Shown: positions 6,476-32,000, numbered from the stretch's first letter. The stretch: 32,000 bases of DNA from Candidatus Brocadia sp. (GCA_021650915.1 CP091279.1:2130001-2162000); one strand, 5' to 3'. The notes: generated by a model not told the origin, from the sequence alone. A program made the numbers and translations.

Positions 6476-7641
6476 AGAAAGGAAGGCATTTATTTACCTC
6501 AGAATCAGTATCCATGGGGCACCCGGATAAGGTTGCCGACCAGATATCTGATGCCGTGTTAGATGCAATGCTTGAACAAGACCCAATGAGCCGGGTGGCA
6601 TGCGAAACACTGGTAACAACCGGGGTTGCCTTTGTTGCTGGGGAATTTACGACAAAGGCCAATGTGAATATTCCCGATATCGTAAGACACACCATAAAAG
6701 AAATTGGTTATGGTGATGCATCGATAGGATTCGATTATAACACGTGCGCTGTTATCACCAGTATTGGTAAGCAGTCCCCGGATATCTCGCAGGGCGTGTC
6801 TGAAGGTGAGGGACTTCATAAGGACCAGGGCGCCGGTGATCAGGGCATGATGTTTGGTTATGCCTGCAATGATACGCCAGAACTGATGCCGCTTCCTATT
6901 ATGCTGGCTCACAGGATTATCATAAAACACGCCGAGCTGAGACAGAGCGGGGAATTGAAGTATCTCCGTCCCGATGCGAAATCCCAGGTAACGGTAGAAT
7001 ATGAAGACCATAAACCCATCCGGGTACACACGGTGGTTGTTTCAACCCAGCATGCGCCGGATGTAAAATATGAAACAATTAAAGAGGATATGATTGAAAA
7101 AGTGGTGAAGCAGGTGATCCCGGCAAATCTTCTGGACAATAAAACCATTTATCATATAAACCCAACGGGACGTTTTGTCGTGGGTGGTCCTCAGGGGGAT
7201 TGTGGCCTGACCGGGCGGAAAATTATCGTGGACACATACGGTGGCTGGGGGCGTCACGGTGGTGGCGCTTTTTCGGGAAAAGATCCGACGAAGGTTGATC
7301 GAAGCGCCTGCTATGCTGCCCGACATATCGCGAAAAACGTCGTGGCTTCCGGTCTTGCTGACCGATGCGAAGCGCAGGTAGCTTACGCGATTGGTGTGGC
7401 AAAACCGCTTGCCGTCCATATCACTACGGAAGGTACCGGCAAGGTTCCCGATGAAAAACTTACGCAAATCTGTGAAAAGGTTTTTGATATGACACCTAAG
7501 GGTATTATTGACCGGCTAAAACTGAGAAGGCCGATATACAAGATTACCGCCAGGCACGGCCATTTCGGACGTTCGGAAGATTCCTTTACATGGGAAAAGA
7601 CCGACATGGTGGATGCCCTGCGAAAGGCTGCGGGTGTTTAA
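6472..7641 (+). CDS. metK: S-adenosylmethionine synthetase
   Basis: 389-aa ORF with [29 protein letters not shown] and [16 protein letters not shown]. The ATG overlaps the waaA stop (ATGA at 6472-6475). Confidence 0.97.
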
Positions 7642-7655
7642 ATCGGCTTAATACA

Positions 7656-7679
7656 GGGGGCGCATTCCAATGCGCCCCC
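7656..7679 (+). terminator. GC-rich stem-loop after metK (probable terminator)
   Basis: GGGGGCGCA (7656-7664) / TGCGCCCCC (7671-7679) with a 6-nt loop, 15 nt after the metK stop. The downstream T-tract is weak (GCTATTTG). Confidence 0.55.
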
Positions 7680-7753
7680 GCTATTTGATATGCCCTTACG
7701 AATTCAGAGTTGTAAGGTGGACCATTAGAGGATGTATCGATAAATTCAACTAG

Positions 7754-9043
<1,290 letters not shown>

Positions 9044-20000: not shown

Positions 20001-21266
20001 GTGCAGCGGGAAGGTATTGTCGCATTTGCCGGCTATCCTCTGATTGTCAAAGACCGTTTGGTAGGGGTCATAGCGATGTTTGCCCAAAAAACGATTACCG
20101 AGTTTGCTTACAGGGCATTCGTTTCTGCCGGGGATATCATTGCGCTGGGTATCGACCGCAAACAAGCGGAAGAGGCGCTCCGGGCAAGCGAAAGAAAGTA
20201 CAGAATGCTGCTGGAAAATCTTCCTCAGAGGGTATTTTATAAAGATGAGAATTTACGATATGTGTCGTGTAATGAGAATTATGCCCGAGATTTAAAAATT
20301 TCTCCTGATGAAATAGCCGGAAAGACGGATTATGACTTTTACCCGGAGGCGCTTGCGGAAAAATATCGGTCGGATGACAAACGAATCATGATGTTAGAAA
20401 CAACAGAGGATATCGAAGAAAAATATATCCGGGATGGACAAGAATTCACGATCCATACGGTGAAAACCCCTATAAAAGATGAAAAAGGAAAGGTGATTGG
20501 CGTACTTGGTATTTTTTGGGATATTACTGAAAAAATAGCCTTGCAGATGGAAGCAATACGGAGCCGACATCTGGCATCGATCGGTGAGCTTGCTGCAACG
20601 GTAGCTCATGAAATAAACAATCCCATAACGGGTATTATCAACTGTGCCCAGATATTGGTTAATAAGAGTGAAAAAGGAAGCAAGGGGGAGGATATGGGCA
20701 TTCGCATCGTAAAAGAGGGTAAACGGATAGCTGATATCGTAAAAAGTCTTCTCTCTCTTGCCAGGCCGGGTGACAGAAAAGAGCAAAAGGGAGCAGTCTG
20801 TGTTTCTGACATCGTGTCTGACACCCTTGCTCTGGTAGATTCCCAGTTGAAAAAGGACTGCATTGTCCTGGTTCTCAATCTTCCCCACACCTTACCACGG
20901 ATACGCGCACACCATCAGCAAATTCAACAGGTCTTTTTAAATGTAATCAGCAATGCACGATATGCCTTGAATGCCAAATATCCGGGAAGGCATGAAAATA
21001 AAATGCTCGGGATTCGGGGTGAAGCGGTAACTATGGACCATGGTCGTTGGGTAAAGATTACGTTTCATGATACCGGCGCCGGGATACCTTCTGATATTCT
21101 GGATAAGGTAATGAATCCGTTTTTTTCCACGAAACCACGGGGAAAGGGTACGGGACTTGGTTTGAGCATCAGCCACAGCATTGTAAAGGATCATGGCGGT
21201 AAACTTCTGATAGATTCCGTTGAAGGAGAATTTACGGATATAACGATTGTTTTGCCATCAGTGTAA
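17079..21266 (+). CDS. multi-domain sensor histidine kinase (2 TM, HAMP, GAF, 3 PAS, GAF, PAS, HisKA-like, HATPase)
   Basis: 1395-aa ORF. TM1 (LMLFMSTLVIIISTLSCVFFLI) and TM2 (IPLGLIIISGGISTIIFL) flank a ~165-aa extracytoplasmic region. Next are HAMP (PLRQMANVTLDIAKGDLTR...EIGQLSVNFNKMTRSL), GAF and PAS repeats each ending in G(I/V)xxDITE(R/Q/K). The H-box is ASIGELAATVAHEINNPITGI and the ATPase G-box is GKGTGLGLSISHSIVKDHGG. Confidence 0.92.
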   Translation: MIGIRAKLMLFMSTLVIIISTLSCVFFLIHAKRQQEETLKNFGMSLVMLLAQDHEVKYAMTYTQPAFLDAPVKRIRALDREEEIGYLRISNVQTTLMEEKTPWMGIDMKEIPIQKGRENQEILYSNCMLACSQKAFYDFSLAVTEEKTFSEEAFAAQVLEEITMKAGQHPLGFIQIGLSSHKLGKRIHRIFWKSVIPLGLIIISGGISTIIFLTKYLVSPLRQMANVTLDIAKGDLTRTVDVQSYDEIGQLSVNFNKMTRSLKKSYDDLKQEIVERRRAEGLLGFRVKIEELIAAISTNFINLPPSEVDAGIDRALQQIGEFSDVDRSYVFLNTPDGKKIDNTHEWCAKGILPQKENLQGVFVEQFPWGMEKLRRFETLHIPRINDLPEDAKAERALQQSQEVQSCVIVPMIYGGSLMGLLGFDSVRREKTWTQEDIAMLKMVAEIFVNALEHKRMEEALRKANSELELRVEERTLELSKTNAILKEEIVEHKKARDALRKYEILISEMTDLAYICDTEGNIVFVNPTFEKLTSHPPEEFIGKSFAPLFDDENYKKGMRFYTNTLEGESPRFEIYFKDTGVLCEYNNMPLRDDQGNIIGVIGIARDITERKRMENILRETNQTLQAIILASPLAITVLDSRGCVKIWNPSAERIFGWKEQEVLGHGLPIVSSDKQHEFIGLRDQVLRGESFMVELWRRRKDGSLINISLSTAPLYGHHGNVEGILGIMSDNTERQKMMNDLQQAKDYAENLIETANIMVVELDVMGNIQIFNKVAEEITGYKKEEIIGRNWFEVIVPRERNPYVWEEFSLWQSGGPLPKTMEAPVFTKLGKKRYVSWQNSEVREQGKTIGTISFGVDITEQKRNKELVERIRLMAFLKDIGIALTASEPLREMLSQCTDAVVSNLDVAFTRIWTFNEKENILELQASSGRYTHIDGAHGRIPLGKYKIGIIARDRQPHLINSVINDPHISDKEWVQREGIVAFAGYPLIVKDRLVGVIAMFAQKTITEFAYRAFVSAGDIIALGIDRKQAEEALRASERKYRMLLENLPQRVFYKDENLRYVSCNENYARDLKISPDEIAGKTDYDFYPEALAEKYRSDDKRIMMLETTEDIEEKYIRDGQEFTIHTVKTPIKDEKGKVIGVLGIFWDITEKIALQMEAIRSRHLASIGELAATVAHEINNPITGIINCAQILVNKSEKGSKGEDMGIRIVKEGKRIADIVKSLLSLARPGDRKEQKGAVCVSDIVSDTLALVDSQLKKDCIVLVLNLPHTLPRIRAHHQQIQQVFLNVISNARYALNAKYPGRHENKMLGIRGEAVTMDHGRWVKITFHDTGAGIPSDILDKVMNPFFSTKPRGKGTGLGLSISHSIVKDHGGKLLIDSVEGEFTDITIVLPSV

Positions 21267-21457
21267 GGTTTGGATCGGGGGTAATATTAACTCTGCCAGA
21301 GTTTTAAACCCTGACAAGGTTGACTCATGAATTTTGCGCTTTAGATTTTGTCTTTTCCGGTTTGTTTGAGTTTTTGTTTTGAAGGAGGTGAGAAAATGCT
21401 TTTCCGTTGTGAATTATTATCGTGATATCTTTACCCTGGTTCCTTCCTTAATGATAA

Positions 21458-21473
21458 TGGAATAATAATTGCT
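21458..21473 (+). promoter_or_regulatory. candidate sigma54 (-24/-12) promoter upstream of the sigma54 activator gene
   Basis: TGGAATAATAATTGCT has GG (21459-21460) and GC (21471-21472) separated by exactly 10 nt, with the TTGCT -12 element. It lies about 50 nt upstream of the 21522 ATG. The -24 half is AT-rich (TGGAAT rather than TGGCAC). Confidence 0.3.
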
Positions 21474-21521
21474 TCTAATACGCTAATATCTTTTATCTTT
21501 GAGATAGGAAAAGAGGGAAAT

Positions 21522-23237
21522 ATGAAGAAAAAAATTCTTATAATCGACGATGAAGAGAATATTCGGTACACCTTTGAAAACTTTCTTGTAGACGAGGGAT
21601 ATGAGGTGTTGTCTGCAAAGGATTACCGAGACGCCTTAATTGCGATTGATACGTCAGATTTTGATCTGATATTTTGCGATATTCTCCTGGACGAGAAGAC
21701 GGGTATTGACATCCTGGGGTATGTTAAGGAGAAGAATCTCATTTGCCCCGTTGTTATGATTACCGGCGCCCCTGATATTGGAACCGCCTCAGAAGCCCTC
21801 CGATTGGGCGCTTTCGACTACATTTCCAAGCCGGTGCTGCAAGACACCTTATTGCGTGTCACAAAGGTGGCATTGCAGCATAAGGCACTTGTTGACGAAA
21901 AGGAGAGATACCAGACAAACCTTGATGCTATATTCCGGAGCGTAAGGGATGCAATTATTACCGTAGACAAGGATTTGGCGGTAGTGGAGATGAACGCGGC
22001 GGCAGAACAAATCTGTGGTTTGTCTCGTAATCTTGTTGGGAATCAACTCAACTCTTTTCAGACACATTGCGGAGGAAGGTGTTCTGAAATTCTTCGTACA
22101 ACTATCGTAGAGAAACAACCTCTTGAGGTAGCAAGTCTTGAGTGCAAACATAGCCATCGTCCACATCAGGTTGTCAGCATTTCCACTAGCCCGCTCATAA
22201 ACAAGAAAGGCGCCTTTGCAGGCGCCGTTTTAGTAGTGAGAGATGATACGCATCTTGTCGAGCTAGAAAGGGATATGAAAGAACGGCATAAATTTTGTAA
22301 TATCATAGGAAAGAGTGAAAAGATACAGATGATTTATTCTTTTATCGAAGACTTAGCGGACGTCCAGACGACCGTCCTGGTGCTGGGCGAGAGTGGGACC
22401 GGGAAAGAACTGGTTGCAGAAGCGATCCATTACAGCGGTGCACGCAGTAGCAAATCCCTGGTCAAGGTGAACTGCTCGGCTTTATCTGAGAATCTGCTTG
22501 AAAGTGAACTCTTTGGGCACGTAAAGGGCTCATTTACCGGGGCTCTTCAGGATAGGATTGGCAGATTTCAGAAGGCGGATGGCGGCACCATTTTTCTGGA
22601 TGAGATTGGCGACATCTCTCCACGGATACAACTCCAGCTGCTGAGGGTCCTCCAGGAAAGGGAATTTGAACGAGTGGGAGACTCAAATCCTGTCAGGGTA
22701 GATGTCCGGGTTATTGCAGCGACGAATCAAAACCTCCGCGAAAAAGTCAAACGGGGAGAGTTCCGCGAGGACCTTTATTACCGGCTCAAGGTAGTAGAAA
22801 TGTGCCTGCCGCCCTTAAGAGACAGGAAGGAAGACATACCGTTGCTGGTAAAACACTTTGTGAAAAAATTCAATAAAAAATTAAACAAAGAAATTTCAGC
22901 AATATCTGCGGATGTCCAGAAGATCTTTATGAACTATACCTGGCCGGGAAATATCCGCGAATTGGAACATACCATGGAGCATGCATTTATCCTTTGCCAC
23001 CAAAACATCATTACGATGGATCATCTGCCACTTAATTTTAAAGAGTTACTTGAACCCCACCGGCCTTCCTTTGAAGACGCGCGAGATGGAGAATTGCGGT
23101 CAATCCGCCGGGCGCTTGAACAGGTTGCATGGAATAAGGTAAGGGCTGCACGGTTGTTAGGAATGAGCCGAAGAACGCTCTATCGAAAGATAAAAGACTA
23201 TAAGATAGGAGTGAAGGATGATGATTATAAAATATAA
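21522..23237 (+). CDS. sigma54-dependent response regulator (REC-PAS-AAA+-Fis HTH), NtrC family
   Basis: 571-aa ORF. The receiver has DD (9-10) and phospho-acceptor Asp53 (DLIFCDILL). The central PAS-like segment is LDAIFRSVRDAIITVD. The AAA+ core has GESGTGKE, the sigma54-contact loop GSFTGA (GAFTGA variant) and GGTIFLDEIG. The C-terminal HTH is AARLLGMSRRTLYRKIK. Confidence 0.95.
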   Translation: MKKKILIIDDEENIRYTFENFLVDEGYEVLSAKDYRDALIAIDTSDFDLIFCDILLDEKTGIDILGYVKEKNLICPVVMITGAPDIGTASEALRLGAFDYISKPVLQDTLLRVTKVALQHKALVDEKERYQTNLDAIFRSVRDAIITVDKDLAVVEMNAAAEQICGLSRNLVGNQLNSFQTHCGGRCSEILRTTIVEKQPLEVASLECKHSHRPHQVVSISTSPLINKKGAFAGAVLVVRDDTHLVELERDMKERHKFCNIIGKSEKIQMIYSFIEDLADVQTTVLVLGESGTGKELVAEAIHYSGARSSKSLVKVNCSALSENLLESELFGHVKGSFTGALQDRIGRFQKADGGTIFLDEIGDISPRIQLQLLRVLQEREFERVGDSNPVRVDVRVIAATNQNLREKVKRGEFREDLYYRLKVVEMCLPPLRDRKEDIPLLVKHFVKKFNKKLNKEISAISADVQKIFMNYTWPGNIRELEHTMEHAFILCHQNIITMDHLPLNFKELLEPHRPSFEDARDGELRSIRRALEQVAWNKVRAARLLGMSRRTLYRKIKDYKIGVKDDDYKI

Positions 23238-23277
23238 CCGTCACTCGTGTTTTTATTACAAGGTACTCGTTTTTTAT

Positions 23278-23339
23278 AAAAAAGTGTGTCATGGCACACT
23301 TCTGTGACGTCACAAAAGTGTGCCATGACACACTTTTTT
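23278..23339. terminator. 62-bp near-perfect palindrome flanked by A6/T6: probable bidirectional terminator, possibly also a protein-binding site
   Basis: AAAAAAGTGTGTCATGGCACACTTCTGTGAC | GTCACAAAAGTGTGCCATGACACACTTTTTT. The two 31-nt arms are reverse complements with one mismatch (23302 C vs 23315 A). It sits between the convergent response regulator gene and a minus-strand small ORF. Confidence 0.7.
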
Positions 23340-23345
23340 ATTGTT

Positions 23346-23534
23346 TTAACCCTCCCCACCTCTGTTAATTTCATTCTTTTTGTGCCTTTCGTAATTACCA
23401 ATTCCCCAAAAAAAGTTTATTTCCCACGGTAATCGTTCGTATTTCTCCTTCAAAAAGAGATAAAGGATAAAGGTCTCGCGATTATCGACATAATAAAATT
23501 GTATTTTCAGTTTCTGGTATACCATTTGATTCAC
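23346..23534 (-). pseudogene. possible N-terminally truncated RelE/Gp49 (HigB-like) toxin remnant
   Basis: 62-aa ORF. KLKIQFYYVDNRETFILYLFLKEKYERLPWEI resembles the C-terminal half pattern yRi.Yf....i.lL..F.KK....P..Ei of Gp49/RelE-type toxins. The frame stays open upstream with no ATG, and there is no antitoxin gene. The resemblance is from memory only. Confidence 0.25.
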
Positions 23535-23752
23535 CTTATAAAAAAATTGTGAAAGCGAGAAAAGCAGGTAGAACTTTTTGATGAAGGGAGGGTATAGGGG
23601 ATGAATATATTTATTACCTTTTTGATAATTAGCATTCTAATCACCATCACAGCTCTCGTTTTTTTGTGAGATTTGTGAAAAAATACCGGAGGTTTTTAAG
23701 TCTTGGTCAATGCAGAGGATTTATTTCGTTGGAAGGGAGGGCTTGCGTGGAA

Positions 23753-24295
23753 ATGTCAAAAGTTGTTTATAAATTAATGGAAAACGAACTGATGCGGCTG
23801 TTGTTTTCTGGTGTAACCGATCTTACCTATATTTATGACATGGATGGAAATATTTTGTTTGTTAATAAAGTATTTGAAAAATTTACGGGTCACAGACCGG
23901 AGGAGTTTTACGGGAGGCCATTCGCTGCCCTCTTTGACGAAGAGAACTTAAAAAAAGCAAAGGATGCCTTTGCCGAGACGTTGAAAGGAAAGAGTCCTGA
24001 ATATAAGCTTTCCTTTCAGAATACCAGGATATTGTGCGAGTACAGAAACTTTCCGATAAAGGATCAAAGCGGCAATCTTGTTGGCGTAATGGGTATTGCC
24101 AGGGATGTTACCGCGCGAGGGCGCGAAGAGGAGCAGTTAAAGGCGTTAAACGAATCTCTGGAGAAAAGGGTAATTGAACATACTTCAAGACTCGTGGAAT
24201 TAAATAAAGAATTAATGAGAGAAACCAACGAACGCGAACGACTTGAAAAGGAGTTGAAACACGGTATGGAGAAACAAAAGCAATCCATGTTATGA
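23753..24295 (+). CDS. stand-alone PAS domain protein with C-terminal coiled coil
   Basis: The ORF track starts at 23666, but an ATG at 23753 follows GGAAGGGAGGG (23741-23751), giving 180 aa. The PAS fold ends in GIARDVT, followed by a charged heptad-like tail (EEQLKALNESLEKRVIEHTSRLVELNKELMRETNERERLEKELK). Confidence 0.8.
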   Translation: MSKVVYKLMENELMRLLFSGVTDLTYIYDMDGNILFVNKVFEKFTGHRPEEFYGRPFAALFDEENLKKAKDAFAETLKGKSPEYKLSFQNTRILCEYRNFPIKDQSGNLVGVMGIARDVTARGREEEQLKALNESLEKRVIEHTSRLVELNKELMRETNERERLEKELKHGMEKQKQSML

Positions 24296-24315
24296 AAAAG
24301 GATTGAAATCTGACC

Positions 24316-24618
24316 ATGAAGTATAAAATATCAGTCATCATTGTGGGCGGAGATCATTTAGGAAGCATACCAAGGGAGCTTGATAAAATCGGGATTACGG
24401 AAATTCAACACCTGACCGGCAGGGGTGGGCAAAAGATGCGGGGGAAAATTCCAGAGAACGTTGATTTTATTATTCTCCTTTACGATTTTGTAAATCATAA
24501 CCTGGCATATAAAGTAAAGAGATTAGCCGTGAACCGGAAAATCCCTATTATCTATGCAAAGAGATCATGGTCTTCCATTTATCAAAAAATCAAGGATAGC
24601 CGGATAACGATCCCCTGA
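24316..24618 (+). CDS. DUF2325 family protein
   Basis: 100-aa ORF 20 nt after the PAS gene. VIIVGGD...VDFIILLYDFVNHNLAYKVKRLA...IPIIYAKRSWSSI fits the DUF2325 pattern (vGG...aD.vi..td.vsH.....vk). Confidence 0.75.
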   Translation: MKYKISVIIVGGDHLGSIPRELDKIGITEIQHLTGRGGQKMRGKIPENVDFIILLYDFVNHNLAYKVKRLAVNRKIPIIYAKRSWSSIYQKIKDSRITIP

Positions 24619-24815
24619 TTTCATATGGGTTTTGTGCGATGTCGCACAAAGGTTGTTGCTGAAGTTCATCAACCTGCTGCCATATCCTCGCCGGGTTCTT
24701 TCGATGCCCTTTTTGAAGAACCCAAAACAATTCAGAATTTGTATACACCCGTAAGCAAGTGGCAATCCTTCTTCCCGTGTCCGTTGTATGGCAATTGTGG
24801 AGTGGTAAATTGTCA

Positions 24816-24844
24816 TTGACATTAATTTTGCAACGCTGTAAAAT
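24816..24844 (+). promoter_or_regulatory. near-consensus sigma70-type promoter for the acpS/radical-SAM/KS operon
   Basis: TTGACA (24816-24821), 17-bp spacer, TAAAAT (24839-24844), about 75 nt upstream of the acpS ATG. Confidence 0.55.
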
Positions 24845-24920
24845 GCTTTTTCCCCCTAAATAGATACTTATGCTACAAGCAGTTACAATGACTGAAATTG
24901 CCAGTCAATCGTAATCATTT

Positions 24921-25307
24921 ATGTATGTCGGTATTGATATTGTTGAAATAAGACGTATTGAAAAATTATTCTCAGCCAATGAGGATTTTTTGCGAAGGAT
25001 TTATACCGAAAAAGAGGTGGAATACTGCAACCAAAAGAAGAACAAATATCAGCATTTTGCAGCTCGTTTCGCCTCAAAAGAGGCAATGTTCAAGGCGCTG
25101 GGAACTGGTTGGGCTGACAAAATGAAATGGACGGATATTGAGCTCTTAAATGATAAAAAGGGGAGACCGTATTTAAATCTCTACGGCAGGGTAAAAGAAT
25201 TGGCAGATGAAAAACGGATTGGTGATATTTCGGTGTCATTGTCACACTGTCATGACTATGCCATTGCCCAGGTTTTATTGGTGCCAAAAAAAGAGGATTG
25301 TTCATGA
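24921..25307 (+). CDS. acpS: holo-[acyl-carrier-protein] synthase (AcpS-type 4'-phosphopantetheinyl transferase)
   Basis: 128-aa ORF with YVGIDIVEIRRIE at the N-terminus, FAARFASKEAMFKALG, and ISVSLSHCHDYAIAQVLL at the C-terminus. This is the classic AcpS size and motif set. Confidence 0.9.
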   Translation: MYVGIDIVEIRRIEKLFSANEDFLRRIYTEKEVEYCNQKKNKYQHFAARFASKEAMFKALGTGWADKMKWTDIELLNDKKGRPYLNLYGRVKELADEKRIGDISVSLSHCHDYAIAQVLLVPKKEDCS

Positions 25308-26785
25308 AAAAACTTGTACTTATCAATCCTCACCCGATTGGAAATGTGGGGGAGGAAAATGTCTCCGTATTAAATCAAATGCCGGTGAATCTCGGCTATC
25401 TGAAGACATTAACGCCAAAACACTGGCAGGTTGATATTATTGATGAAACCCAGGAGCCTGCAATTGACGAAAAGACGGGGGATACCACTTTTGGCGGCGC
25501 CGATCTGGTGGGCATTACGTCGGTAAGTTATCAGGCACATCGCGCGTACCAGATAGCTGCCGCCTGTCGGAAGCGGGGGATACCGGTGATCATGGGCGGT
25601 ATCCATGCGACCAGCTACCCGGAGGAGGCGGCACAACATGTGGATTGTGTGGTGACCCGGGAAGCCGTTACCCTCTGGGAAAAGATTATTGGCGACTTTG
25701 AAAAGGGCTGTCTCCAAAAACGATACGACGGTAGTCTTACGCCGATGGAGTTGTATCGTGGATTACGATCCGATAGAAAATACCTGAAGGATAAATATAA
25801 ATACCGCTACTCCGGCATTATCACGACTGCCGGATGTCCCTTTAGCTGTGAGTTTTGCTCTGTGCCGCAGTTTCAGGGCAGGAAATACCGGGAAAGGCCG
25901 ATTGAAGACGTGCTTGATGAATTCGAATCTATCAAGGGCCAATATCGCGGTTTGATCCTGACGGATGAGAATTTCTACGGACACAGCAAAAAATCCAATG
26001 AGCGTGTCCGCGACCTTTTCAAGGGCATGGTGGATCGCGGCATTTACCAGAACTGGTTTGGGTTCACCTCCCTTAATATTTATAAAGACGACGAAACCCT
26101 CGAATATATGAGGAAGAGCGGGTGTGTTGGAGTGCTCATCGGCATAGAATCCATCAATGAAGAAGCCTTGAAGACGATGAACAAGAACGTAAATCTGCGT
26201 ATCTCCATTGAAAATTATTTTGAGGCGATAGCCAATATCCGCAAACACGGCCTTGCCGTGTGGGGAACCATGGTCTTTGGTAACGATGCCGACACCCCTG
26301 AGACCTTCAAACAAGTTGCCGATTTTGTCCTGGATTCCCATGTCGATATCATGACCTGTGGTATTTTATGTCCATTCATCAACACACCGCTGTATCATCG
26401 GCTGAACGGTGAAGGACGGCTTTTCAGGACTAACTTCCCGGAAGACTGGAAGTATTATACATCTCATCATCTCACCTACGTCCTGAAAAATATGTCCCTG
26501 CAGGAACTTATCGATGGATTTCAGTATTTGTATGACAGGATTTATGCCACGGAGGTGCTCCGGCAGAGATTTCAGAATGCAAAAGAGGTGCTGAAAGATA
26601 ATATGAATGCCGCTATGTTTGCCTTCAGGGTCAACCTGGATTGGCAGACCGTATACCAGCACCTGATCCAAAATCTCAAAGAATTGCAGACAACGGGGTT
26701 TTATAATGAGGCATTAAAACAATATAATCAATCGAAAAAAGCCGGGAAAAAGGTGGAATTGACGCCGATTGAGGTTTCGTCCTGA
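25304..26785 (+). CDS. B12-binding-domain radical SAM enzyme (class B)
   Basis: I prefer the ATG at 25304 (AGAGGA at 25292-25297; ATGA overlap with the acpS stop) over the TTG at 25298. The N-terminal cobalamin-binding-like domain has VGITSVSYQAHRAY and VIMGGIHATSYPEE. The radical SAM cluster motif CPFSCEFC (CxxxCxxC) is at 25835-25858. Confidence 0.9.
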   Translation: MKKLVLINPHPIGNVGEENVSVLNQMPVNLGYLKTLTPKHWQVDIIDETQEPAIDEKTGDTTFGGADLVGITSVSYQAHRAYQIAAACRKRGIPVIMGGIHATSYPEEAAQHVDCVVTREAVTLWEKIIGDFEKGCLQKRYDGSLTPMELYRGLRSDRKYLKDKYKYRYSGIITTAGCPFSCEFCSVPQFQGRKYRERPIEDVLDEFESIKGQYRGLILTDENFYGHSKKSNERVRDLFKGMVDRGIYQNWFGFTSLNIYKDDETLEYMRKSGCVGVLIGIESINEEALKTMNKNVNLRISIENYFEAIANIRKHGLAVWGTMVFGNDADTPETFKQVADFVLDSHVDIMTCGILCPFINTPLYHRLNGEGRLFRTNFPEDWKYYTSHHLTYVLKNMSLQELIDGFQYLYDRIYATEVLRQRFQNAKEVLKDNMNAAMFAFRVNLDWQTVYQHLIQNLKELQTTGFYNEALKQYNQSKKAGKKVELTPIEVSS

Positions 26786-26901
26786 CTTAGATTGATTATC
26801 ACATCTGCTCCTTGTACTTGTCCCTATTCGATCATTTGTATAGCCAATAGTTGATTTCCAATTACGCACTCTGAAAACGTTACGCTAAATTACTGAAAAT
26901 T

Positions 26902-28110
26902 ATGCCACAAGTCGTCATAACGGGTTTAGGATTAGTTACACCCATTGGGATTGGCGTCAGACAAAGCTGGGAGGCCTTCCTCCGGGGCGTGAACGGGGCT
27001 AATGAGATGAAGTCCTTCGATACCGCAAAATACAAAGTGCATCGCTCCTGTGAGGTAAAAAATTTCCAATGGGACTTTGAACTAGAAAATCAGATCAAAG
27101 AAAACACGATCCATAAATACGTCTACTACGCAGCCCGGGAGGCATTGCAGGAAAGCGGTTTGTCGGGTGATAAGAAATTCGATCGTGAACGATTTGGCAT
27201 TGCCATCGGGACGTTAGCAGCCGAGCTGACGCCCTTTGAAAGGCTCTTGCGATTAGACACCTCAAAAAAAGACACCGGTTTCGATAACATCGTTGCAGCC
27301 GTTTACCCGCCCAATTCGATCACCAATATTCTGTCCAAAAATTTTGAATTTGAAGGTCCAACCATGATCTCGCTGAACGCCTGCTCGTCGGGCAATCACG
27401 CCATTGCATGGGCGTATGACCACCTTGTGGATAATAAGGTTGATGTGGTAATGGTTGGTGGTGGTGACATGATCCCTCAAACAGAATTTACCCATTTTCA
27501 CAACCTCAAAGCGCTGGCGCCAGAACGTTGTCAGCCATTCGATAAAAACCGCCAGGGACTAATGATCGGCGAAGGGGCAGGGATACTGATCATGGAACGT
27601 TACGAATTTGCCAAAAAACGCGGGGCAACGATTATTGCTGAGATGGCAGGTTATGGGTTAAGTTGCGATGGATTTCACATGACCGCGCCCCATCCTGAGG
27701 GCGATGGCGCTGTGAGATGCATGAGCGATGCGCTAAAAATGGTAAACCTTTCTCCCCAAGAAATTGGTTACATCAATGCCCACGGTACTGGTACGCCCCA
27801 CAACGACAAGACGGAAACCATTGCCATAAAGCGCGTGTTTGGCGATGGTGCGTATAAGGTCCCCAGCAGTTCTACCAAATCGATGATAGGTCACCTCATG
27901 GGTGCAGCCAGCGCTGTGGAATCAGTTGTCTGCTGTCTGGTATTGAGACATGGAGTAGTTCCTCCGACGATTAATTACGAAACCCCTGATCCGGAATGCG
28001 ACCTCGATTACGTGCCCAATACGGCACGCGAGTTAAAAGTGGGTCACGTGTTAAACAACTCCTTTGCCTTTGGCGGTAACAACGCTACAACGATATTCAG
28101 CAAATTATGA
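26902..28110 (+). CDS. fabF: beta-ketoacyl-ACP synthase, FabF/FabB-like, catalytic triad intact
   Basis: 402-aa ORF collinear by eye with E. coli FabF. Active-site Cys161 in ISLNACSSGNH (TGC 27382-27384), His in CDGFHMTAPHP, His in YINAHGTGTPHND, then SSTKSMIGHLMGAASAVE and NSFAFGGNNATTIF. Confidence 0.92.
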   Translation: MPQVVITGLGLVTPIGIGVRQSWEAFLRGVNGANEMKSFDTAKYKVHRSCEVKNFQWDFELENQIKENTIHKYVYYAAREALQESGLSGDKKFDRERFGIAIGTLAAELTPFERLLRLDTSKKDTGFDNIVAAVYPPNSITNILSKNFEFEGPTMISLNACSSGNHAIAWAYDHLVDNKVDVVMVGGGDMIPQTEFTHFHNLKALAPERCQPFDKNRQGLMIGEGAGILIMERYEFAKKRGATIIAEMAGYGLSCDGFHMTAPHPEGDGAVRCMSDALKMVNLSPQEIGYINAHGTGTPHNDKTETIAIKRVFGDGAYKVPSSSTKSMIGHLMGAASAVESVVCCLVLRHGVVPPTINYETPDPECDLDYVPNTARELKVGHVLNNSFAFGGNNATTIFSKL

Positions 28111-29339
28111 AAAAACGAGTCGTTATTACTGGTTTAGGTGTTGTGTCTCCCCTTGGTTGCGGTAAAGAGGCGTTTTGGAATAGCCTCATTGAGGGAAAGT
28201 CAGGTATCACACCCATATCTTCTCTCGACGTATCTCCTTACAAGTGTAAGCTCGGCGGCGAAGTAAGAGACCTCAAACCCGAAGTATACCTTGGCAGTAA
28301 AGGCTTGAAGTACTTGAACAAGGGGACACGTTTCCTGGGGTCTGCCTCTAAGATGGCGCTGGATGATGCAAATCTGCCGCAGGACGGTTCCCTGTCGGAT
28401 CAGATGGGCATTGTCATTGGCTCGTCTCTTGGCAACTTTTCAGAAACTACGGATTATTTTTACGAAATTATCAGGAACAACCCATCCGAATTGTCACCCA
28501 TGCTCAGCTATGACGTTGCCTTGAATTCTTCCATCAATTACGTATCCGTCATCTTTAAAATCAAGGGACTCGCCCGTACCATATCTGCAGGTTTTACGTC
28601 CAGTGCCGATGCCGTCGGAGATGCATTTAAAATGATACGGCGTGGTATGGCAAAGGTGATCGTGGCAGGCGGTGTTGAACAGATATCCATTGATCTGTAC
28701 CTGATATTTTATCTGCGCGGCTTGTTATCGGGTCTTGATGGCACAAGAGAGGCAAGCCTGCCCTTTGATAAAGAGAGAAACGGTTTTGTCATGGCCGAAG
28801 GCAGTTACGTGATTATCCTGGAAGAACTCCAGCATGCCCTTGACAGGGGAGCCCATGTCTATGCGGAGGTAAAGGGATTTGGCAGCACCTTCGTGGGTGG
28901 CAAAAACCATCCGACAGGTATACGAGTGCGTCGTGCCGAAAGGGCCATGCGTGAAGCGTTGGAAGATGCGGGGGTAAAGAAGGAAGATGTTGGCCTGATC
29001 AGTACAAATGCCAATGGATGCAAGGTACAGGATGCCGTTGAGGCAAAGGCGATCCGATCTTTATTTGACACGGGGAGCAGTCAAATACCGATATCTGCAA
29101 TAAAATCAAACATCGGTGAATCGTACGGGACCGCCGGTGCAGCGCAACTCATTTCATCAGTCATGTCGATAAACACAGGCCTGATACCTCCTATTATCAA
29201 TCACCGCGACAAAGATCCGGAAATCAATCTGAATCTCATCCTTGAGAAACCCATTAAAAAAGAAATCAGAAATGCAGCGTTAAACACCAGGGATTATGAG
29301 GGAAATAATTCATGCCTGGTCATAAGTAGGATGGATTGA
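28107..29339 (+). CDS. ketosynthase-like protein lacking catalytic Cys and His (chain-length-factor-like partner)
   Basis: 410-aa ORF whose ATG overlaps the upstream KS stop (ATGA 28107-28110). It keeps the thiolase-fold N-terminus RVVITGLGVVSPLG and DKERNGFVMAEG. It has SAGFTSSADAVG where the Cys loop should be (TTT ACG at 28593-28598), and TNANGC in place of NAHGT. Confidence 0.85.
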   Translation: MKKRVVITGLGVVSPLGCGKEAFWNSLIEGKSGITPISSLDVSPYKCKLGGEVRDLKPEVYLGSKGLKYLNKGTRFLGSASKMALDDANLPQDGSLSDQMGIVIGSSLGNFSETTDYFYEIIRNNPSELSPMLSYDVALNSSINYVSVIFKIKGLARTISAGFTSSADAVGDAFKMIRRGMAKVIVAGGVEQISIDLYLIFYLRGLLSGLDGTREASLPFDKERNGFVMAEGSYVIILEELQHALDRGAHVYAEVKGFGSTFVGGKNHPTGIRVRRAERAMREALEDAGVKKEDVGLISTNANGCKVQDAVEAKAIRSLFDTGSSQIPISAIKSNIGESYGTAGAAQLISSVMSINTGLIPPIINHRDKDPEINLNLILEKPIKKEIRNAALNTRDYEGNNSCLVISRMD

Positions 29340-29380
29340 GGCGTGTGTCTTTTCACGCCGAATCCACCGTTACCCTTGTT

Positions 29381-29419
29381 GAGTGTCTTGCAAGGCTTTT
29401 CATGCTTTGCAAGACACTC
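29381..29419 (+). terminator. stem-loop after the KS-like gene (possible terminator, no T-tract)
   Basis: Perfect 13-bp stem GAGTGTCTTGCAA (29381-29393) / TTGCAAGACACTC (29407-29419) with a 13-nt loop, 42 nt after the stop. A smaller hairpin GGCGTG...CACGCC lies at 29340-29359. No U-run follows. Confidence 0.4.
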
Positions 29420-29437
29420 AAGAAAACTAAAAGGAGG

Positions 29438-29546
29438 CTAGTGTAAAGACATATTAGTAACGAAACATATAAATGCTGTTTCGCAGCGCGATATAGCTAA
29501 AATTGTCCACAATATATAATTTGTAATTAATATGTCTGCACACTAG
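29438..29546 (-). mobile_element. 109-bp MITE-like internal-deletion derivative of an IS630-family element
   Basis: Terminal inverted repeats CTAGTGTAAAGACATATTA (29438-29456) and TAATATGTCTGCACACTAG (29528-29546) match in 17 of 19 positions. Both ends align without gaps to the ends of the full IS630 copy at 30051-31217, in inverted orientation. The right end matches the IS left end at 23/26 positions and the left end matches the IS right end at 25/32 (hand alignment). It is bounded by CTAG on both sides. Confidence 0.55.
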
Positions 29547-29632
29547 AGGCTTAATGGGTGACCCCTTTGCTTTCCCAGCTTCAGTGGCTTGTTGGGCGGC
29601 GCCCAGCGAGCGGTACTCTTGAGCCCGAAAGG

Positions 29633-30050
29633 CTAGGTCGGACTGCCGTGTCTCCGCTCAAGTCTCTGAACGTGTTCTACGTCCGTCTCGCCACTGATGG
29701 CAAGGCGCGCAGTCTCAATCCTGCCCACGCAAAACTGCATTCGATTGAGGGACATGATCTCGACAGTGTGTTCGCGCAGGTAGTCAATAAGCCCGGAGAT
29801 ACAAAACACCCTCTGAGGAACCTCTGTCTTGAATTCCGCTTCACCCGTGAAGACGACAACCGACTTGATGGCGCCGGACGGTAGAAAATCAAGGAGGCCT
29901 TGCACCGCCCGAACGTGTCGATCGTTCTGAAATATTGGGTTCTGGAATTTGAACCTGTGGTTGAACAAGACTTGAGTCCATCTCGCCTGCTTCGCGTTGG
30001 CGAAGATCCAACCCTTGTGGTCCTTAGTCTCAACGACGAACACACCGAAC
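29633..30050 (-). pseudogene. NERD (nuclease-related domain) gene fragment, interrupted by IS630 and N-terminally truncated
   Basis: The 136-aa frame FGVFVVETKDHKGWIFANAKQARWTQVLFNHRFKFQNPIFQNDRHVRAVQ fits the NERD core as I remember it. The frame is cut at 30051 by the IS630 end. The region is 58-63% GC by hand count, against about 35% in the adjacent spacer. Confidence 0.65.
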
Positions 30051-30082
30051 CTAGTGTGTTGACAAATTAATTACAATACATT

Positions 30083-30538
30083 ATGCTGTGCTTCATGAGA
30101 CAAGCAAAAATTCAACTTACCGAGGAAGAACGAGCAACCTTGAAGTCATTTCGCTCCAAGGGGCAGCACATGACAAGAGAAGTCAATCGTGCGCATATAT
30201 TATCGGCTTTAGACCAAAATGTGCCTGAAAAACATATTCTGTCTGTTCTGGGTGTTGGCCGCACTGCCATTTGGCGGACACGCTCTGCATATCTTGAGAA
30301 GGGCTTGGATTATGCACTTCACGATGTTGTCAGACCCGGTCAGCCGGTAAAATACGGAACCAACCAACAAGCCGAAGTCGTAGCTTTGGCATGTAGTGCA
30401 CCACCGAAGGGTGCCAGGCGCTGGACAATCGCCTTGTTGACTGAAGCAATAAGGCAACAGCTAAAACTTAGAAAGATTAGTCGTGAAAGTATCCGTCTCT
30501 TTCTAAAAAAAACGACTGTAAGCCGTGGCGGAAATTGA
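30083..30538 (+). CDS. IS630-family transposase, N-terminal HTH part (orfA frame)
   Basis: 151-aa ORF with a helix-turn-helix-like N-terminus (ERATLKSFRSKGQHMTREVNRAHILSAL) and RWTIALLTEAI. It ends 26 nt after an A8 run. Confidence 0.85.
   Translation: MLCFMRQAKIQLTEEERATLKSFRSKGQHMTREVNRAHILSALDQNVPEKHILSVLGVGRTAIWRTRSAYLEKGLDYALHDVVRPGQPVKYGTNQQAEVVALACSAPPKGARRWTIALLTEAIRQQLKLRKISRESIRLFLKKTTVSRGGN
30505..30512 (+). promoter_or_regulatory. A8 run: candidate -1 frameshift / transcriptional slippage site joining orfA and orfB
   Basis: In the orfA frame the sequence reads CTA AAA AAA ACG (an A AAA AAA heptamer). A -1 shift gives ...LKKNDCKPWRKLMWCIGK..., restoring the KPW...WCI junction typical of uninterrupted IS630 transposases. 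The orfB frame is open from 30487. Confidence 0.5.
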
Positions 30539-31197
30539 TGTGGTGTATTGGTAAATTGACTGAGGAATACCGCCAAAGGATGTATGATTTGCTGGAACTC
30601 TACACGAGGTCTTATTGTGAGGACGAGCCAGTGATTTGCGTAGACGAGAAGAGTAAGCAGCTTTTGGAACAACCGCGCCTCTCAATTCCTGCCAGTCCGG
30701 GCAATCCTGTCAAAGAGGACTGCGAGTATAAACGTGCCGGCACCCGTAATATTTTCATGGCAGTTGAACCTAAGGGTGGTTGTAGACAGGTTGAAGTGAC
30801 AACCCGTCGTACCAAGAGAGATTTTGTCCAGTTCATCGGCCATTTGGTAAAAAAAGTCTATGTAAGGGCGCTCAAGATTCATCTGGTGTTGGACAATCTT
30901 AATACTCATTTTCGCAGTAGTTTTGAAGAAATATTGGGTGTTGAAGAAGCAACCCAGATGTTGGAACGAGTAGAATTTCATTATACTCCCAAGCATGCCA
31001 GTTGGCTTAATATGGCTGAAATTGAAATCGGCATCATGGATCGGCAGTGTACTGGGTGCCGAATACCAAACGAACAAACCCTTCGGTCGGAAGTCGCTGC
31101 GTGGACTGACCGACGCAATCAGGCCAAATCAACAATAGATTGGAAGTTTACACGGCAAGATGCTGATCAAAAGCTGTCAAGGCACTATGTTTCGTAA
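30535..31197 (+). CDS. IS630-family transposase, DDE catalytic part (orfB frame)
   Basis: 220-aa ORF in the -1 frame relative to orfA. Candidate DDE residues lie in VICVDEKS, LVLDNLNTH and ASWLNMAEIEIG. Confidence 0.85.
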   Translation: MMWCIGKLTEEYRQRMYDLLELYTRSYCEDEPVICVDEKSKQLLEQPRLSIPASPGNPVKEDCEYKRAGTRNIFMAVEPKGGCRQVEVTTRRTKRDFVQFIGHLVKKVYVRALKIHLVLDNLNTHFRSSFEEILGVEEATQMLERVEFHYTPKHASWLNMAEIEIGIMDRQCTGCRIPNEQTLRSEVAAWTDRRNQAKSTIDWKFTRQDADQKLSRHYVS

Positions 31198-31302
31198 TTA
31201 ATTTGTTGTAATACTAGAGCGGCTCTGCCGCAACCGAAGCTTTAAAACCGTCCTCCAATAGTGTATATTTAATTTTTTGTAACACTTTAGTTCTTTGAAA
31301 AA

Positions 31303-32000
31303 TTAACAAGCGATTTTGCAAGCAAACCCAGAAGGCGTTTTCACCATAAGGGCATTTTTTGCGCTAGCCAGAAGATTTTCCACTGGATTGATTCTTTGTA
31401 ATTCAGCAGAACGAAGCAGAGACATAAGGATGGCCTGTGTCTTAGCGCCATCCTCAGAGCGGTTCTGCTGTGAGACCTTTCTGGTCAATACTGGCTTTCG
31501 CATCTGTTGCTCAGCATGGTTATTATAGGGACTGACATCCTCATGTTCCAGGAACGTAAAGAGTTCCTGTTTATGGCGGTTCAGGCGTTTGGTCAATCTT
31601 TGTGCATCTTTGTGCATCTTTATCCTGGCAGGGTGTTGCCAAAAACTGTTCAAGCCTGCAATACAGTCTATTTTTGAGCCTGAGAAAGCATGCCGGGTTT
31701 ATCTGGTGCTTTTTCTCGGATAGCCGGATGGCATCCCTGAGTAATCGGGAGAGTTTTCTCCTGAAACTTTTCCATGAGACAGAATGGTTGTAGGTGTCTA
31801 CTTTCACGAGTTCCGTAAAGAGATGATAGAAACACCGCTGCTTTGCCAGTGCGCTTGTCTTGTTATAAGCGCCCCAGAAGTCGCAGATCAGGATGCCCTT
31901 GAAGAGTCTGCCTAAGAACCTTTTTATGACAGGCGACCCCCGATTCCGTGTTATAAGGTAGTAGCAGAGGGTTTTGGTGGTAAAACACCATAACCAATGG
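31303..32000 (-). pseudogene. IS66-family transposase, frameshifted, 5' part beyond the window
   Basis: The minus-strand frame entering at 32000 reads ...LWCFTTKTLCYYLITRNRGSPVIKRFLGRLFKGILICDFWGAYNK...KQRCFYHLFTEL (DDE region pattern). The C-terminal frame reads ELFTFLEHEDVSPYNNHAEQQMRKPVLTRKVSQQNRSEDGAKTQAILMSLLRSAELQRINP, the typical IS66 tail. The two frames are offset by a 10-bp duplication. Confidence 0.8.
31601..31620. repeat. 10-bp perfect tandem duplication (TGTGCATCTT x2) causing the IS66 frameshift
   Basis: TGTGCATCTT at 31601-31610 is repeated at 31611-31620. Deleting one copy fuses the frames to ...PCQDKDAQRLTKRLNRHKQELFTF... (translated by hand). Confidence 0.9.

Follow-up and report, generated by a model that had tools for sequence, protein, structure and literature searches.

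A ladderane-candidate operon of Candidatus Brocadia and its kinship with Cluster I inside and outside the anammox bacteria

What does an operon build when it places a phosphopantetheinyl transferase (PPTase) beside a cobalamin-dependent radical S-adenosylmethionine (SAM) enzyme and two ketosynthases (KSs), one of which has lost its catalytic residues? The question is raised by a stretch of 32,000 nucleotides from Candidatus Brocadia sp. (GCA_021650915.1, CP091279.1:2130001-2162000), referred to below as the window and numbered from its first letter, in which a preliminary description made from the sequence alone had singled out four genes. We find that this operon is the Candidatus Brocadia ortholog of kuste2802-2805 of Kuenenia stuttgartiensis. 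On balance, we favor the reading that it is one half of an ancestral lipid cluster in the style of a type II fatty acid synthase (FAS) or polyketide synthase (PKS), the other half being Cluster I (amxACP, amxFabZ, amxFabF2, amxFabFmut, a phytoene-desaturase-like protein [PDH], and a radical SAM enzyme [rSAM] that depends on B12), and that the product is most likely a ladderane lipid or a committed precursor of one. The operon comprises the following features.

24921-25307, + strand: acpS, holo-[acyl-carrier-protein] synthase, an AcpS-type PPTase of 128 amino acids (open reading frame [ORF] call, PF01648, TIGR00516)
25304-26785, + strand: gene for a cobalamin-dependent (class B) rSAM of 493 amino acids with the motif CPFSCEFC (PF02310, PF04055, and PF13282)
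26786-26901, + strand: rSAM-KS intergenic gap of 116 bp (ORF positions)
26902-28110, + strand: gene for an active FabF-like KS of 402 amino acids with Cys161, His294, and His331 (ketoacyl-synt N- and C-terminal domains)
28107-29339, + strand: gene for a KS-like, triad-dead partner of 410 amino acids, predicted to be a subunit resembling a chain-length factor (CLF) (ketoacyl-synt N- and C-terminal domains, alignment)

ORF, Pfam, and NCBIfam analyses confirmed the positions and families of these four same-strand genes, and the ATGA overlaps reported at 25304-25307 (acpS/rSAM) and 28107-28110 (KS/KS-like) are indeed there; the rSAM start is the ATG at 25304, with an in-frame TTG at 25298. The four genes had been taken as one translationally coupled unit. 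The coupling holds at both overlaps but not as a single continuous string, as the 116-bp gap separates rSAM from KS and a promoter-like TTTATA-17-TATAAT, found by promoter scan at 26700-26728, lies ahead of it. The operon is two coupled gene pairs, not one unbroken coupled string. In deep lineages the same gap measures only 10 to 17 bp. No gene for an acyl carrier protein (ACP), ketoreductase (KR), dehydratase (DH), or enoyl reductase (ER) was found in the window, in agreement with the preliminary description.

Each of the four proteins has an exact match in Candidatus Brocadia entries, B. fulgida KKO20980 and KKO20977 and a Brocadia metagenome-assembled genome (MAG) among them; the window comes from a Brocadia close to B. 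fulgida. AcpS, identical to KKO20980.1, is the ortholog of kuste2802, the rSAM that of kuste2803, the KS that of kuste2804, and the KS-like protein that of kuste2805. We equate the operon with kuste2802-2805 because both its gene set and the substitution pattern of its KS-like protein match the published ones. The order of acpS, B12-dependent rSAM, active FabF-like KS, and noncanonical KS is the same, as it is in two Kuenenia loci of our survey (L035 and L039), the rSAMs of which are 83 to 84% identical to that of the window. Rattray 2009 lists acpS as Kuste2802 and "FabB" as Kuste2805 (Table 1), characterizes Kuste2803 as a B12-binding SAM radical enzyme, and gives for Kuste2805 the residues Phe163, Asn298, Asn300, Cys302, Lys328, Glu333, and Gln342 (Table 2). 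The window KS-like protein, with AGFTSS, NANGC, KSNIGE, and ...AAQ, has the complete pattern, and the Phe, Asn, Lys, and Glu positions were also confirmed by alignment. The Kuenenia cluster entered the literature as a ladderane candidate in 2009, appears also in Strous 2006, and was treated by Javidpour 2016 as "operons 3+4" and called "a complete cluster"; a 2022 review named Kuste2803 a potential cyclobutane-forming catalyst. The likeness to anammox ladderane candidates seen in the preliminary description is therefore borne out in gene set and substitutions, and the operon is a correct re-discovery of a known candidate; the novelty implied for it does not survive, the exact cluster being in print (PMC2649909, PMC4790861, PMC9204698).

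The first gene encodes a protein with a single ACPS domain that scores well above curated cutoffs (PF01648, 75 versus 25 bits; TIGR00516, 101.5 versus 59.8; TIGR00556, 105.5 versus 45.35), and its best matches among solved structures are AcpS proteins. In Kuenenia, acpS is reported to be the only acpS, with no paralog. Alignment shows the triad of the KS (Cys161, His294, His331) to be intact, and it is invariant in 58 orthologs. The KS-like protein retains the Lys and has Phe, Asn, and Glu at the triad columns (Cys to Phe, His to Asn, and His to Glu), and it is triad dead in all 58 orthologs; a proper alignment thus did not restore its residues, and the contrast between a full Cys-His-His triad and its absence stands as first described. 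The KS passes the cutoff of the generic β-ketoacyl-ACP synthase II subfamily NF005589 (406 versus 387 bits), and neither protein reaches the FabF equivalog TIGR03150 (cutoff, 493.75 bits), the KS scoring 409.8 with its triad intact and the KS-like protein 322 with none. Adjoining genes, one triad-less partner, and strict co-occurrence are the genomic marks of a KS/CLF heterodimer, and all are found here. Among solved structures, both proteins come closest to the two chains of 9s5h/9s5i, which we take, from chain lengths and the preprint description, to be the B. fulgida amxFabF heterodimer. The KS scores 414 bits against chain B of 9s5h, 305 against Thermus FabF, 277 against Iga11, and 223 against the actinorhodin KS; the KS-like protein scores 307 bits against chain C, 250 against Bacillus subtilis FabF, 189 against Iga11, and 173 against the actinorhodin CLF.

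The kinship with the amxFabF proteins leads to Cluster I. The window rSAM is 53% identical to a paralog in B. sinica, the last member of the series ACP-FabZ-KS-KS-PDH-rSAM known as Cluster I (kuste3603-3608). Identity is 47% between the window KS and amxFabF2 and 39% between the window KS-like protein and amxFabFmut, and cross comparisons between the window and Cluster I KS types yield only 32 to 33%. The window pair is not orthologous to amxFabF2 and amxFabFmut at these identities, and in clusters with two pairs it is the 3' pair that is nearest the window and the 5' pair that is nearest Cluster I. By sequence comparison, the window rSAM, KS, and KS-like genes are paralogs of the Cluster I genes and form a separate lineage.

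Cluster I has lately been given a biochemistry (bioRxiv 10.64898/2026.05.19.726425, from the Barends laboratory). According to that preprint, amxFabF2 and amxFabFmut are inactive alone and co-purify; together they decarboxylate malonyl-amxACP and form acetoacetyl-ACP, and in crosslinking the heterodimer prefers C6-C8 probes. Phe135 and Val139 of amxFabFmut line the substrate tunnel, and the Val139Gly and Phe135Gly/Val139Gly variants altered chain-length preference, the double mutant reacting at an equal rate with all probes. The nearest structural homolog of amxFabF2 is the ishigamide KS Iga11, and Cluster I is described as highly expressed. That no enzymology exists for such gene sets, as the preliminary description had it, is therefore right for the window operon and wrong for the paralogous Cluster I KS pair, amxACP, and amxFabZ, which have now been characterized (bioRxiv 10.64898/2026.05.19.726425; PMC10139942). 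At the positions of amxFabFmut Phe135, Thr138, and Val139, the window KS-like protein has Ser, Val, and Ala, invariant in the 58 Brocadiales orthologs, and non-anammox proteins of the window type have Gly or Ala at these tunnel positions; the tunnel lining on the KS side and the gate Phe are shared by amxFabF2 and the window KS. Because Ser and Ala replace the chain-restricting Phe135 and Val139 of the mutagenized protein, the window pair is predicted, by analogy, to accommodate acyl intermediates longer or bulkier than those of the Cluster I pair, which prefers C6-C8.

How widely the operon is conserved was assessed by a scan of 185,579 GTDB species genomes (one per species), from which 80 loci were kept and annotated by script; the grouping of rSAMs and all statements of orthology rest on pairwise identity clustering rather than on maximum-likelihood trees. 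Orthologs of the rSAM occur throughout Brocadiales at 65 to 100% identity. Among about 70 GTDB species loci, the order acpS-rSAM-KS-KSmut, KSmut being the triad-dead partner, is found in nearly all those of Brocadiales that are long enough to show four genes, with Loosdrechtia, Subterrananammoxibius, and deep lineages represented alongside Brocadia, Jettenia, Kuenenia, and Scalindua; rSAM-KS-KSmut with no acpS detected occurs in three loci (two from Anammoxibacter and one other). In Jettenia, the KS-like gene is followed, with a 4-bp overlap, by a gene for a 674-amino-acid FadH/OYE-type reductase and then by genes for an enoyl-CoA hydratase/isomerase, a short-chain dehydrogenase/reductase above the FabG equivalog cutoff (322 versus 298 bits), and a muconolactone-isomerase-like (MIase-like) protein. 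BLAST with the Jettenia genes found the same eight-gene unit in Scalindua genome loci and Scalindua-type metagenome contigs. These tail genes are gone from the Brocadia locus. The reductase gene persists (79 to 82% identity) in isolation, at a distance of hundreds of kilobases to over 1 Mb, and in B. pituitae only the hydratase remains near the operon. The suggestion that the cluster is truncated or split and ends in insertion sequence (IS) debris is thereby upheld, since the tail of Jettenia and Scalindua is absent at the Brocadia locus and dispersed in the genus, and IS630 and IS66 sequences and a miniature inverted-repeat transposable element (MITE)-like sequence stand there instead.

Some observations accompany this survey. 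In Brocadia pituitae and Brocadia sp. DTUAMX2 (L089, and L090 8001-10100), the displaced reductase gene lies alone beside an RNase H-like gene in an unrelated neighborhood; its NCBI name, mycofactocin-system oxidoreductase, is doubtful, the Jettenia ortholog scoring 507 bits against a cutoff of 793. One 12.8-kb contig binned as Thermodesulfobacteriota (L050, CAXMPV010000029.1) has the gene order and identities of Scalindua (rSAM, 76%) and is probably mis-binned. A third anammox B12-dependent rSAM paralog (L007 3080-4516, P0115; also P0110, P0120, P0121, and P0139), alone beside a TPR protein, is 52 to 54% identical to the window rSAM and 57 to 60% identical to that of Cluster I. Its source names are only from deep groundwater Brocadiales (e.g., Ca. 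Avalokitesvara), for which a loss from Brocadia, Kuenenia, and Scalindua may account.

A further tie between the window operon and Cluster I comes from outside the anammox bacteria, where the nearest rSAM matches beyond the ortholog clade (54 to 63% identity) are not from Planctomycetota. The taxon labels used here for such contigs are those of the database records. Fused clusters lie on contigs of 65 to 70% G+C and 0.38 to 1.8 Mb labeled "delta proteobacterium" (L076, L084, L085) and Myxococcales (L081, the same as L006). Other non-anammox contigs are labeled Thermodesulfobacteriota (L077, 9.9 kb, 68% G+C) and Blastocatellia (L078, 50% G+C), and six soil metagenome loci of high G+C (L091, L094, L115, L116, L119, and L120) carry pieces of the fused arrangement. 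The fused or partial clusters are positioned as follows.

L076: 2295-16928
L084: 2152-17147
L077: 17-8737
L085: cluster present
L006/L081: 3954-18974
L078: 7466-13800

In the "delta" MAGs, the genes form an uninterrupted run, ACP-FabZ-FabF2-FabFmut-PDH-rSAM1-rSAM2-rSAM3-KS-KSmut-ECH-KR (ECH, enoyl-CoA hydratase), of which the members and their nearest anammox counterparts, with identities, are given here.

ACP: nearest amxACP, 47-48%
FabZ: nearest amxFabZ, 50%
First active KS: nearest amxFabF2, 57-58%
First dead KS: nearest amxFabFmut, 46-48%
PDH: nearest Cluster I PDH, 45-47%
Second active KS: nearest window KS, 51-52%
Second dead KS (Cys to Phe): nearest window KS-like, 40%
ECH and KR: present after the second dead KS
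Fourth, distant B12-dependent rSAM: nearest window rSAM, 30%

The three consecutive rSAMs pair one by one with the anammox paralogs: rSAM1 with that of Cluster I (56 to 62%), rSAM2 with the third paralog (54 to 59%), and rSAM3 with that of the window (54 to 59%). Identities across groups range from 44 to 57% and are always below the matching pair, and both KS types behave likewise. By these identities, the middle rSAM of the fused clusters corresponds to the third anammox paralog. The Myxococcales version is without PDH; its additional genes encode a MIase-like protein, another ACP, FabH, an additional KS, and an AcpS that shares 34% identity with that of the window. A 55% G+C Planctomycetota MAG from deep Brocadiales (L070 9463-21137) carries the window-type operon and Cluster I genes (rSAM, 71%; PDH, 55%; opposite strand) no more than 5 kb apart and looks like an intermediate between the fused and split arrangements. 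The simplest reading of these comparisons is that the window operon and Cluster I come from one ancestral cluster that was broken into separate loci in crown anammox genomes. Because the two are fused outside anammox and nearly adjacent in the deep Brocadiales MAG, they appear to be functionally tied.

These contigs do not make a uniform non-anammox clade; that idea was rejected on account of the probably mis-binned contig mentioned above and of a locus in which the rSAM has no KS pair. In the latter (L088/L092 10001-13821, JGI Ga0209172_10001156), an rSAM 61% identical to the window's, its closest homolog beyond the ortholog clade, is followed by genes for a GcvT-like folate-binding protein and an acyl-CoA dehydrogenase, a neighborhood suggestive of C1 or methyl chemistry for one branch of the family at least. 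On a further contig of 52% G+C (L118, JGI Ga0209172_10000614), a Cluster I-type rSAM (63%) is immediately followed by a window-type KS (61%) and KS-like gene (47%) and then by ECH, FabG, and MIase-like genes, with no acpS. We found no prior report in the literature searched of fused clusters of Cluster I and window type outside anammox; "ladderane" clusters there had previously been antiSMASH calls (PMC9902471). Cluster I has been stated to be "encountered exclusively" in ladderane producers (PMC10139942), and the fused clusters qualify that statement. A clade of characterized function widespread outside anammox would have spoken against the preliminary description. The clusters touch this point only weakly: orthologous sets do exist there, but they are rare and uncharacterized.

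If the operon and Cluster I are halves of one pathway, the following sequence of steps can be proposed. AcpS, judged by its family, would convert an apo-carrier protein to the holo form. KS and the KS-like protein would form a heterodimer like that of amxFabF, as we infer from paralogy, strict co-occurrence, and overlapping genes in some lineages; only the KS would condense malonyl-ACP with the ACP-bound acyl chain, and the dead subunit would shape the substrate tunnel. The B12-dependent rSAM would take hydrogen from the carrier-bound chain, leading to C-C ring closure or to methyl transfer. The FadH/OYE-like reductase, enoyl-CoA hydratase, FabG, and MIase-like protein, scattered in Brocadia, would supply reductive, dehydrating, and isomerizing steps. 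Cluster I may start and build a short chain while the window module handles later or bulkier intermediates, a division of labor in keeping with the "two moieties" scheme considered by Dietl et al., and the end product, by a circumstantial link, would be a ladderane lipid or its committed precursor. As an interpretation, the proposal that the genes form a dedicated system acting on a carrier-bound acyl chain with radical chemistry gains support from the protein families, the Cluster I paralogy, and the conserved linkage. More tentatively, and as a possibility rather than an expectation, an ancestral cluster of about 13 genes, with three B12-dependent rSAMs and two KS/CLF pairs, may have remained intact in rare, uncultured non-anammox bacteria of high G+C (in part in Blastocatellia); if so, ladderane-type lipids or committed precursors may be made there, and the window pair would be the module for longer or bulkier substrates beside the C6-C8 pair of Cluster I.

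Several points weigh against this assignment. Ladderanes, to our knowledge, have never been reported in the non-anammox groups labeled as carrying orthologous clusters, and the presence of such clusters in bacteria labeled Myxococcales, "delta proteobacterium," Thermodesulfobacteriota, and Blastocatellia argues that the product need not be anammox specific. No experiment, in vitro or genetic, ties the window operon, Cluster I, or any other candidate gene to ladderanes (PMC10139942; bioRxiv 10.64898/2026.05.19.726425), and expression of kuste2802-2805 in Escherichia coli gave mostly insoluble protein and no new fatty acid (Javidpour 2016). Physical proof of heterodimerization belongs to the paralogous Cluster I pair, to which the window pair is likened, and a crude count of net charge on the helix-loop-helix at 108-140 and the partner helix at 194-206, aimed at charge-complementary heterodimerization, was uninformative, as it did not reproduce even the published asymmetry of amxFabF2 and amxFabFmut. 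Tyr136, beside Ser135, may refill the tunnel or partly compensate. The sole-copy acpS may reflect housekeeping rather than dedication to a pathway.

The product itself is most open to dispute at the rSAM. The N-terminal B12-binding domain (PF02310, 36.5 versus 32.1 bits) and the radical SAM core (PF04055, 73.9 versus 29.5 bits) with its CX3CX2C motif, CPFSCEFC, read from the sequence and accompanied by PF13282 (DUF4070), place it in class B. The "ladder" rSAM identity was rejected, as the window enzyme scores 79.4 bits against TIGR04072 (rSAM_ladder_B12), the Cluster I rSAM 88.9, and the third paralog 91.4, with an equivalog cutoff of 360. Its best NCBIfam neighbors include methylases (PhpK family, 98.7 bits; HpnR, 68 bits), far below cutoff. 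Across the BchE, HpnJ, PhpK, HpnR, and TIGR04072 families, scores are 68 to 99 bits against cutoffs of 360 to 650, which would put the enzyme equidistant from methylases (PhpK, HpnR) and nonmethylating members (BchE, HpnJ), and it has no close solved structure (best match, 48.7 bits). An unlikely but credible alternative is therefore that the window operon and Cluster I make some other specialized lipid, such as mid-chain methyl-branched or alkylated fatty acids, with the B12-dependent rSAMs acting as class B C-methyltransferases and the ladderane rings being made elsewhere. Besides the methylase neighbors, this alternative draws on the orthologous clusters in MAGs outside anammox, which raise the chance of a nonladderane product, and on the 61%-identical rSAM that stands beside GcvT-like and acyl-CoA dehydrogenase genes with no KS pair. 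Anammox bacteria also contain methyl-branched fatty acids. Of the B12-dependent rSAMs so far characterized, the majority are methylases (PMC9204698; PMC13142503). Yet the gene set is present in every anammox lineage examined and elsewhere in only about 6 of the 80 kept loci; two KS/CLF pairs, a PDH, a FadH-like reductase, and an isomerase-like protein exceed what methyl branching needs; and no methylated product has been tied to the genes.

Two further explanations are less likely than this one. That the genes form a secondary-metabolite cluster for a polyene or pigment, of the highly reducing type II PKS or aryl-polyene kind and apart from bulk membrane lipid, is suggested by the KS/CLF-like architecture, by the Cluster I dehydratase, which matches the ApeP-like and ApeI-like Pfam families, by the structural closeness of amxFabF2 to Iga11, and by the frequency of antiSMASH "ladderane" calls outside anammox (PMC9902471). 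We consider it improbable, as FabFs outscore Iga11 and the actinorhodin KS/CLF for both KS proteins, the anammox loci have no adjoining aryl-starter, glycosyl, or export genes, the high expression of Cluster I fits a bulk product, and acpS is without a paralog in Kuenenia. That acpS and spare FabF paralogs merely serve ordinary elongation, with the rSAM adjacent by chance, is very improbable even though acpS is a sole copy in Kuenenia and the KS passes a generic β-ketoacyl-ACP synthase II cutoff, given that the rSAM-KS-KSmut linkage is kept across the order and in non-anammox clusters with their own ACP, FabZ, and PDH, that the partner KS is dead in all 58 orthologs, and that a canonical fabF (kustd1386) exists elsewhere.

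How the operon is expressed is suggested by three elements upstream of acpS.

24807-24823, + strand: imperfect palindrome AAATTGTCAtTGACATT over the -35 box (read from the sequence)
24816-24844, + strand: sigma-70-type promoter TTGACA-17-TAAAAT (11/12 consensus match, conserved)
24860-24889, + strand: conserved 5'-leader element ATAGATACTTatGCTAcAAGCAGTTACAAT, 30 nucleotides, kept in Brocadiaceae loci in the interval from the -10 box to the acpS start

The near-consensus promoter had been noticed from the outset and proved to be the top promoter-like site in 23200-30200 (11/12), one of 2 window-wide matches with at most 1 mismatch where 0.2 is expected. Both boxes and their spacing are kept upstream of acpS in most Brocadiaceae and deep Brocadiales loci amid diverged flanks; comparison of the same region in Scalindua loci did not show this type of promoter. 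The palindrome arms, of the ATTGTCA/TGACAAT type, are likewise kept upstream of acpS in Brocadiaceae and deep Brocadiales loci, making the palindrome a possible candidate operator. The leader element overlaps a weaker promoter-like TAGATA-17-TACAAT, and both upstream elements may be putative operator sites. Neither matches a known RNA family in Rfam: a scan of 23000-32000 at E ≤ 1 gave only subthreshold miRNA-like matches on palindromes and no riboswitch or known leader.

Directly upstream, at 17079-24618, lie genes for a large PAS/GAF/HAMP histidine kinase, a sigma-54-dependent response regulator, a PAS protein, and a DUF2325 protein. The order regulator-PAS-DUF2325-acpS is kept in many Brocadia loci, and Jettenia has regulator-PAS without DUF2325. 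The activator gene prompted a look for a sigma-54 promoter of the operon, which was rejected: the window holds 18 matches against 15.4 expected, and a partial match over the -35 box misses the GG. Located 3' of the response-regulator gene (23285-23332), a perfect palindrome of 20 bp flanked on each side by T runs looks from its sequence like a bidirectional terminator. Genes for formate-tetrahydrofolate ligase, MetK (SAM synthetase), and AhcY (S-adenosylhomocysteine hydrolase) are located at 418-2181 and 6472-9043, 16 to 24 kb upstream of the operon; the nearness of SAM-cycle genes to a SAM-consuming rSAM operon is probably a coincidence.

At the other end, the operon runs into hairpins and mobile elements.

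29340-29359, + strand: short GC hairpin GGCGTG...CACGCC directly 3' of the KS-like stop codon (fold)
29376-29424, + strand: long perfect hairpin with an 18- to 21-bp stem (fold, z = -7.3)
29438-29546, no strand assigned: MITE-like element of 109 bp (inverted-repeat pairs)
29633-30043, - strand: truncated NERD-domain gene remnant between the MITE and IS630 (domain match)
30051-31217, + strand: complete IS630-family element with 36-nucleotide terminal inverted repeats (inverted-repeat pair; HTH_23/HTH_32, DDE_3)
31303-31653, - strand: IS66 fragment after IS630 (domain match)

A hairpin with a 13-bp stem had been described after the last gene; a hairpin is present there, but its stem is 18 to 21 bp (29376-29424) rather than 13. 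This long hairpin was rejected as a conserved operon terminator: it has no U tract, the terminator scan was silent on it, it occurs only in the window and an identical contig (L001) and is absent from all other Brocadia loci, and it adjoins the MITE. It is probably strain specific and part of inserted DNA. The short hairpin, also without a U tract, is kept after the KS-like gene in four close Brocadia loci (L008, L009, L014, and L040). The MITE-like element and the IS630-family copy 500 bp downstream have the same terminal inverted repeats (CTAGTGT...); the transposase of the IS630 copy is encoded in two ORFs (30083-30538 and 30535-31197), and this copy occupies the place of the downstream operon genes of other genera.

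Ladderane biosynthesis is a long-standing problem: cyclobutane formation has yet to be assigned to an enzyme, in vitro synthesis has not been detected, and no anammox genetic system exists (bioRxiv 10.64898/2026.05.19.726425). The operon itself adds nothing to the published list of candidates; what is new are the fused non-anammox clusters, the orthology of three rSAMs and two KS pairs, and the contrast in tunnel residues, all of them testable leads. As the window operon behaves together with Cluster I like a single pathway, reconstitution should combine the two, together with the FadH-like reductase, ECH, FabG, and MIase-like genes that are scattered in Brocadia and Kuenenia. The dead KS differs at exactly the residues that set the chain-length preference of Cluster I, which makes for a concrete biochemical prediction, and the contiguous non-anammox gene set offers a single cluster for heterologous expression and a test of the restriction of ladderanes to anammox bacteria.

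Set beside known systems, the operon is closest to kuste2802-2805, with the same four roles (acpS, B12-dependent rSAM, FabF, and noncanonical "FabB"; Javidpour Table 2) and the same KS-like substitutions; no functional difference was detected between the two at the sequence level, and the window differs in its genus, Brocadia, and in the strain-specific hairpin, MITE, NERD remnant, IS630, and IS66 at its 3' side. With Cluster I it shares the paralogous trio, the active KS lying upstream of the dead KS in both. In the window the dead KS has Phe in place of Cys, whereas the Cluster I type has Val, Thr, or Ala, and the window operon has acpS, is without ACP, FabZ, and PDH, and, unlike Cluster I, places its rSAM gene ahead of the KS pair. 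With BchE, HpnJ, PhpK, and HpnR the window rSAM shares the N-terminal B12-binding domain and the CX3CX2C radical SAM core, and BchE is a precedent for a B12-dependent rSAM forming a ring C-C bond (PMC13598231). Canonical FAS II (fabH-fabD-fabG-acpP-fabF), which in Kuenenia lies elsewhere, around kustd1386-1389 with kustd1386 as the canonical fabF, has in common with the operon an AcpS-type PPTase and a FabF-like condensing enzyme and, with the extended operon of other genera, a FabG above the equivalog cutoff. Unlike FAS II, the operon has a B12-dependent rSAM and a dead KS partner, and a FadH/OYE-like reductase, a crotonase-family hydratase, and a MIase-like protein replace FabZ and FabI. In the type II PKS KS-alpha/CLF (actinorhodin, 1tqy), Iga11/Iga12, and ApeO/ApeC, as in the window, an active KS gene adjoins a triad-less homolog; such pairs are expected to build chains as heterodimers with the dead subunit setting the tunnel geometry, which is what we predict here. 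Aromatic CLFs have Gln at the Cys position, and the window KS-like protein has none there. Both window proteins are nearer by bit score to FabF than to the PKS subunits, and the KS-like protein probably arose independently from a FabF-like ancestor.

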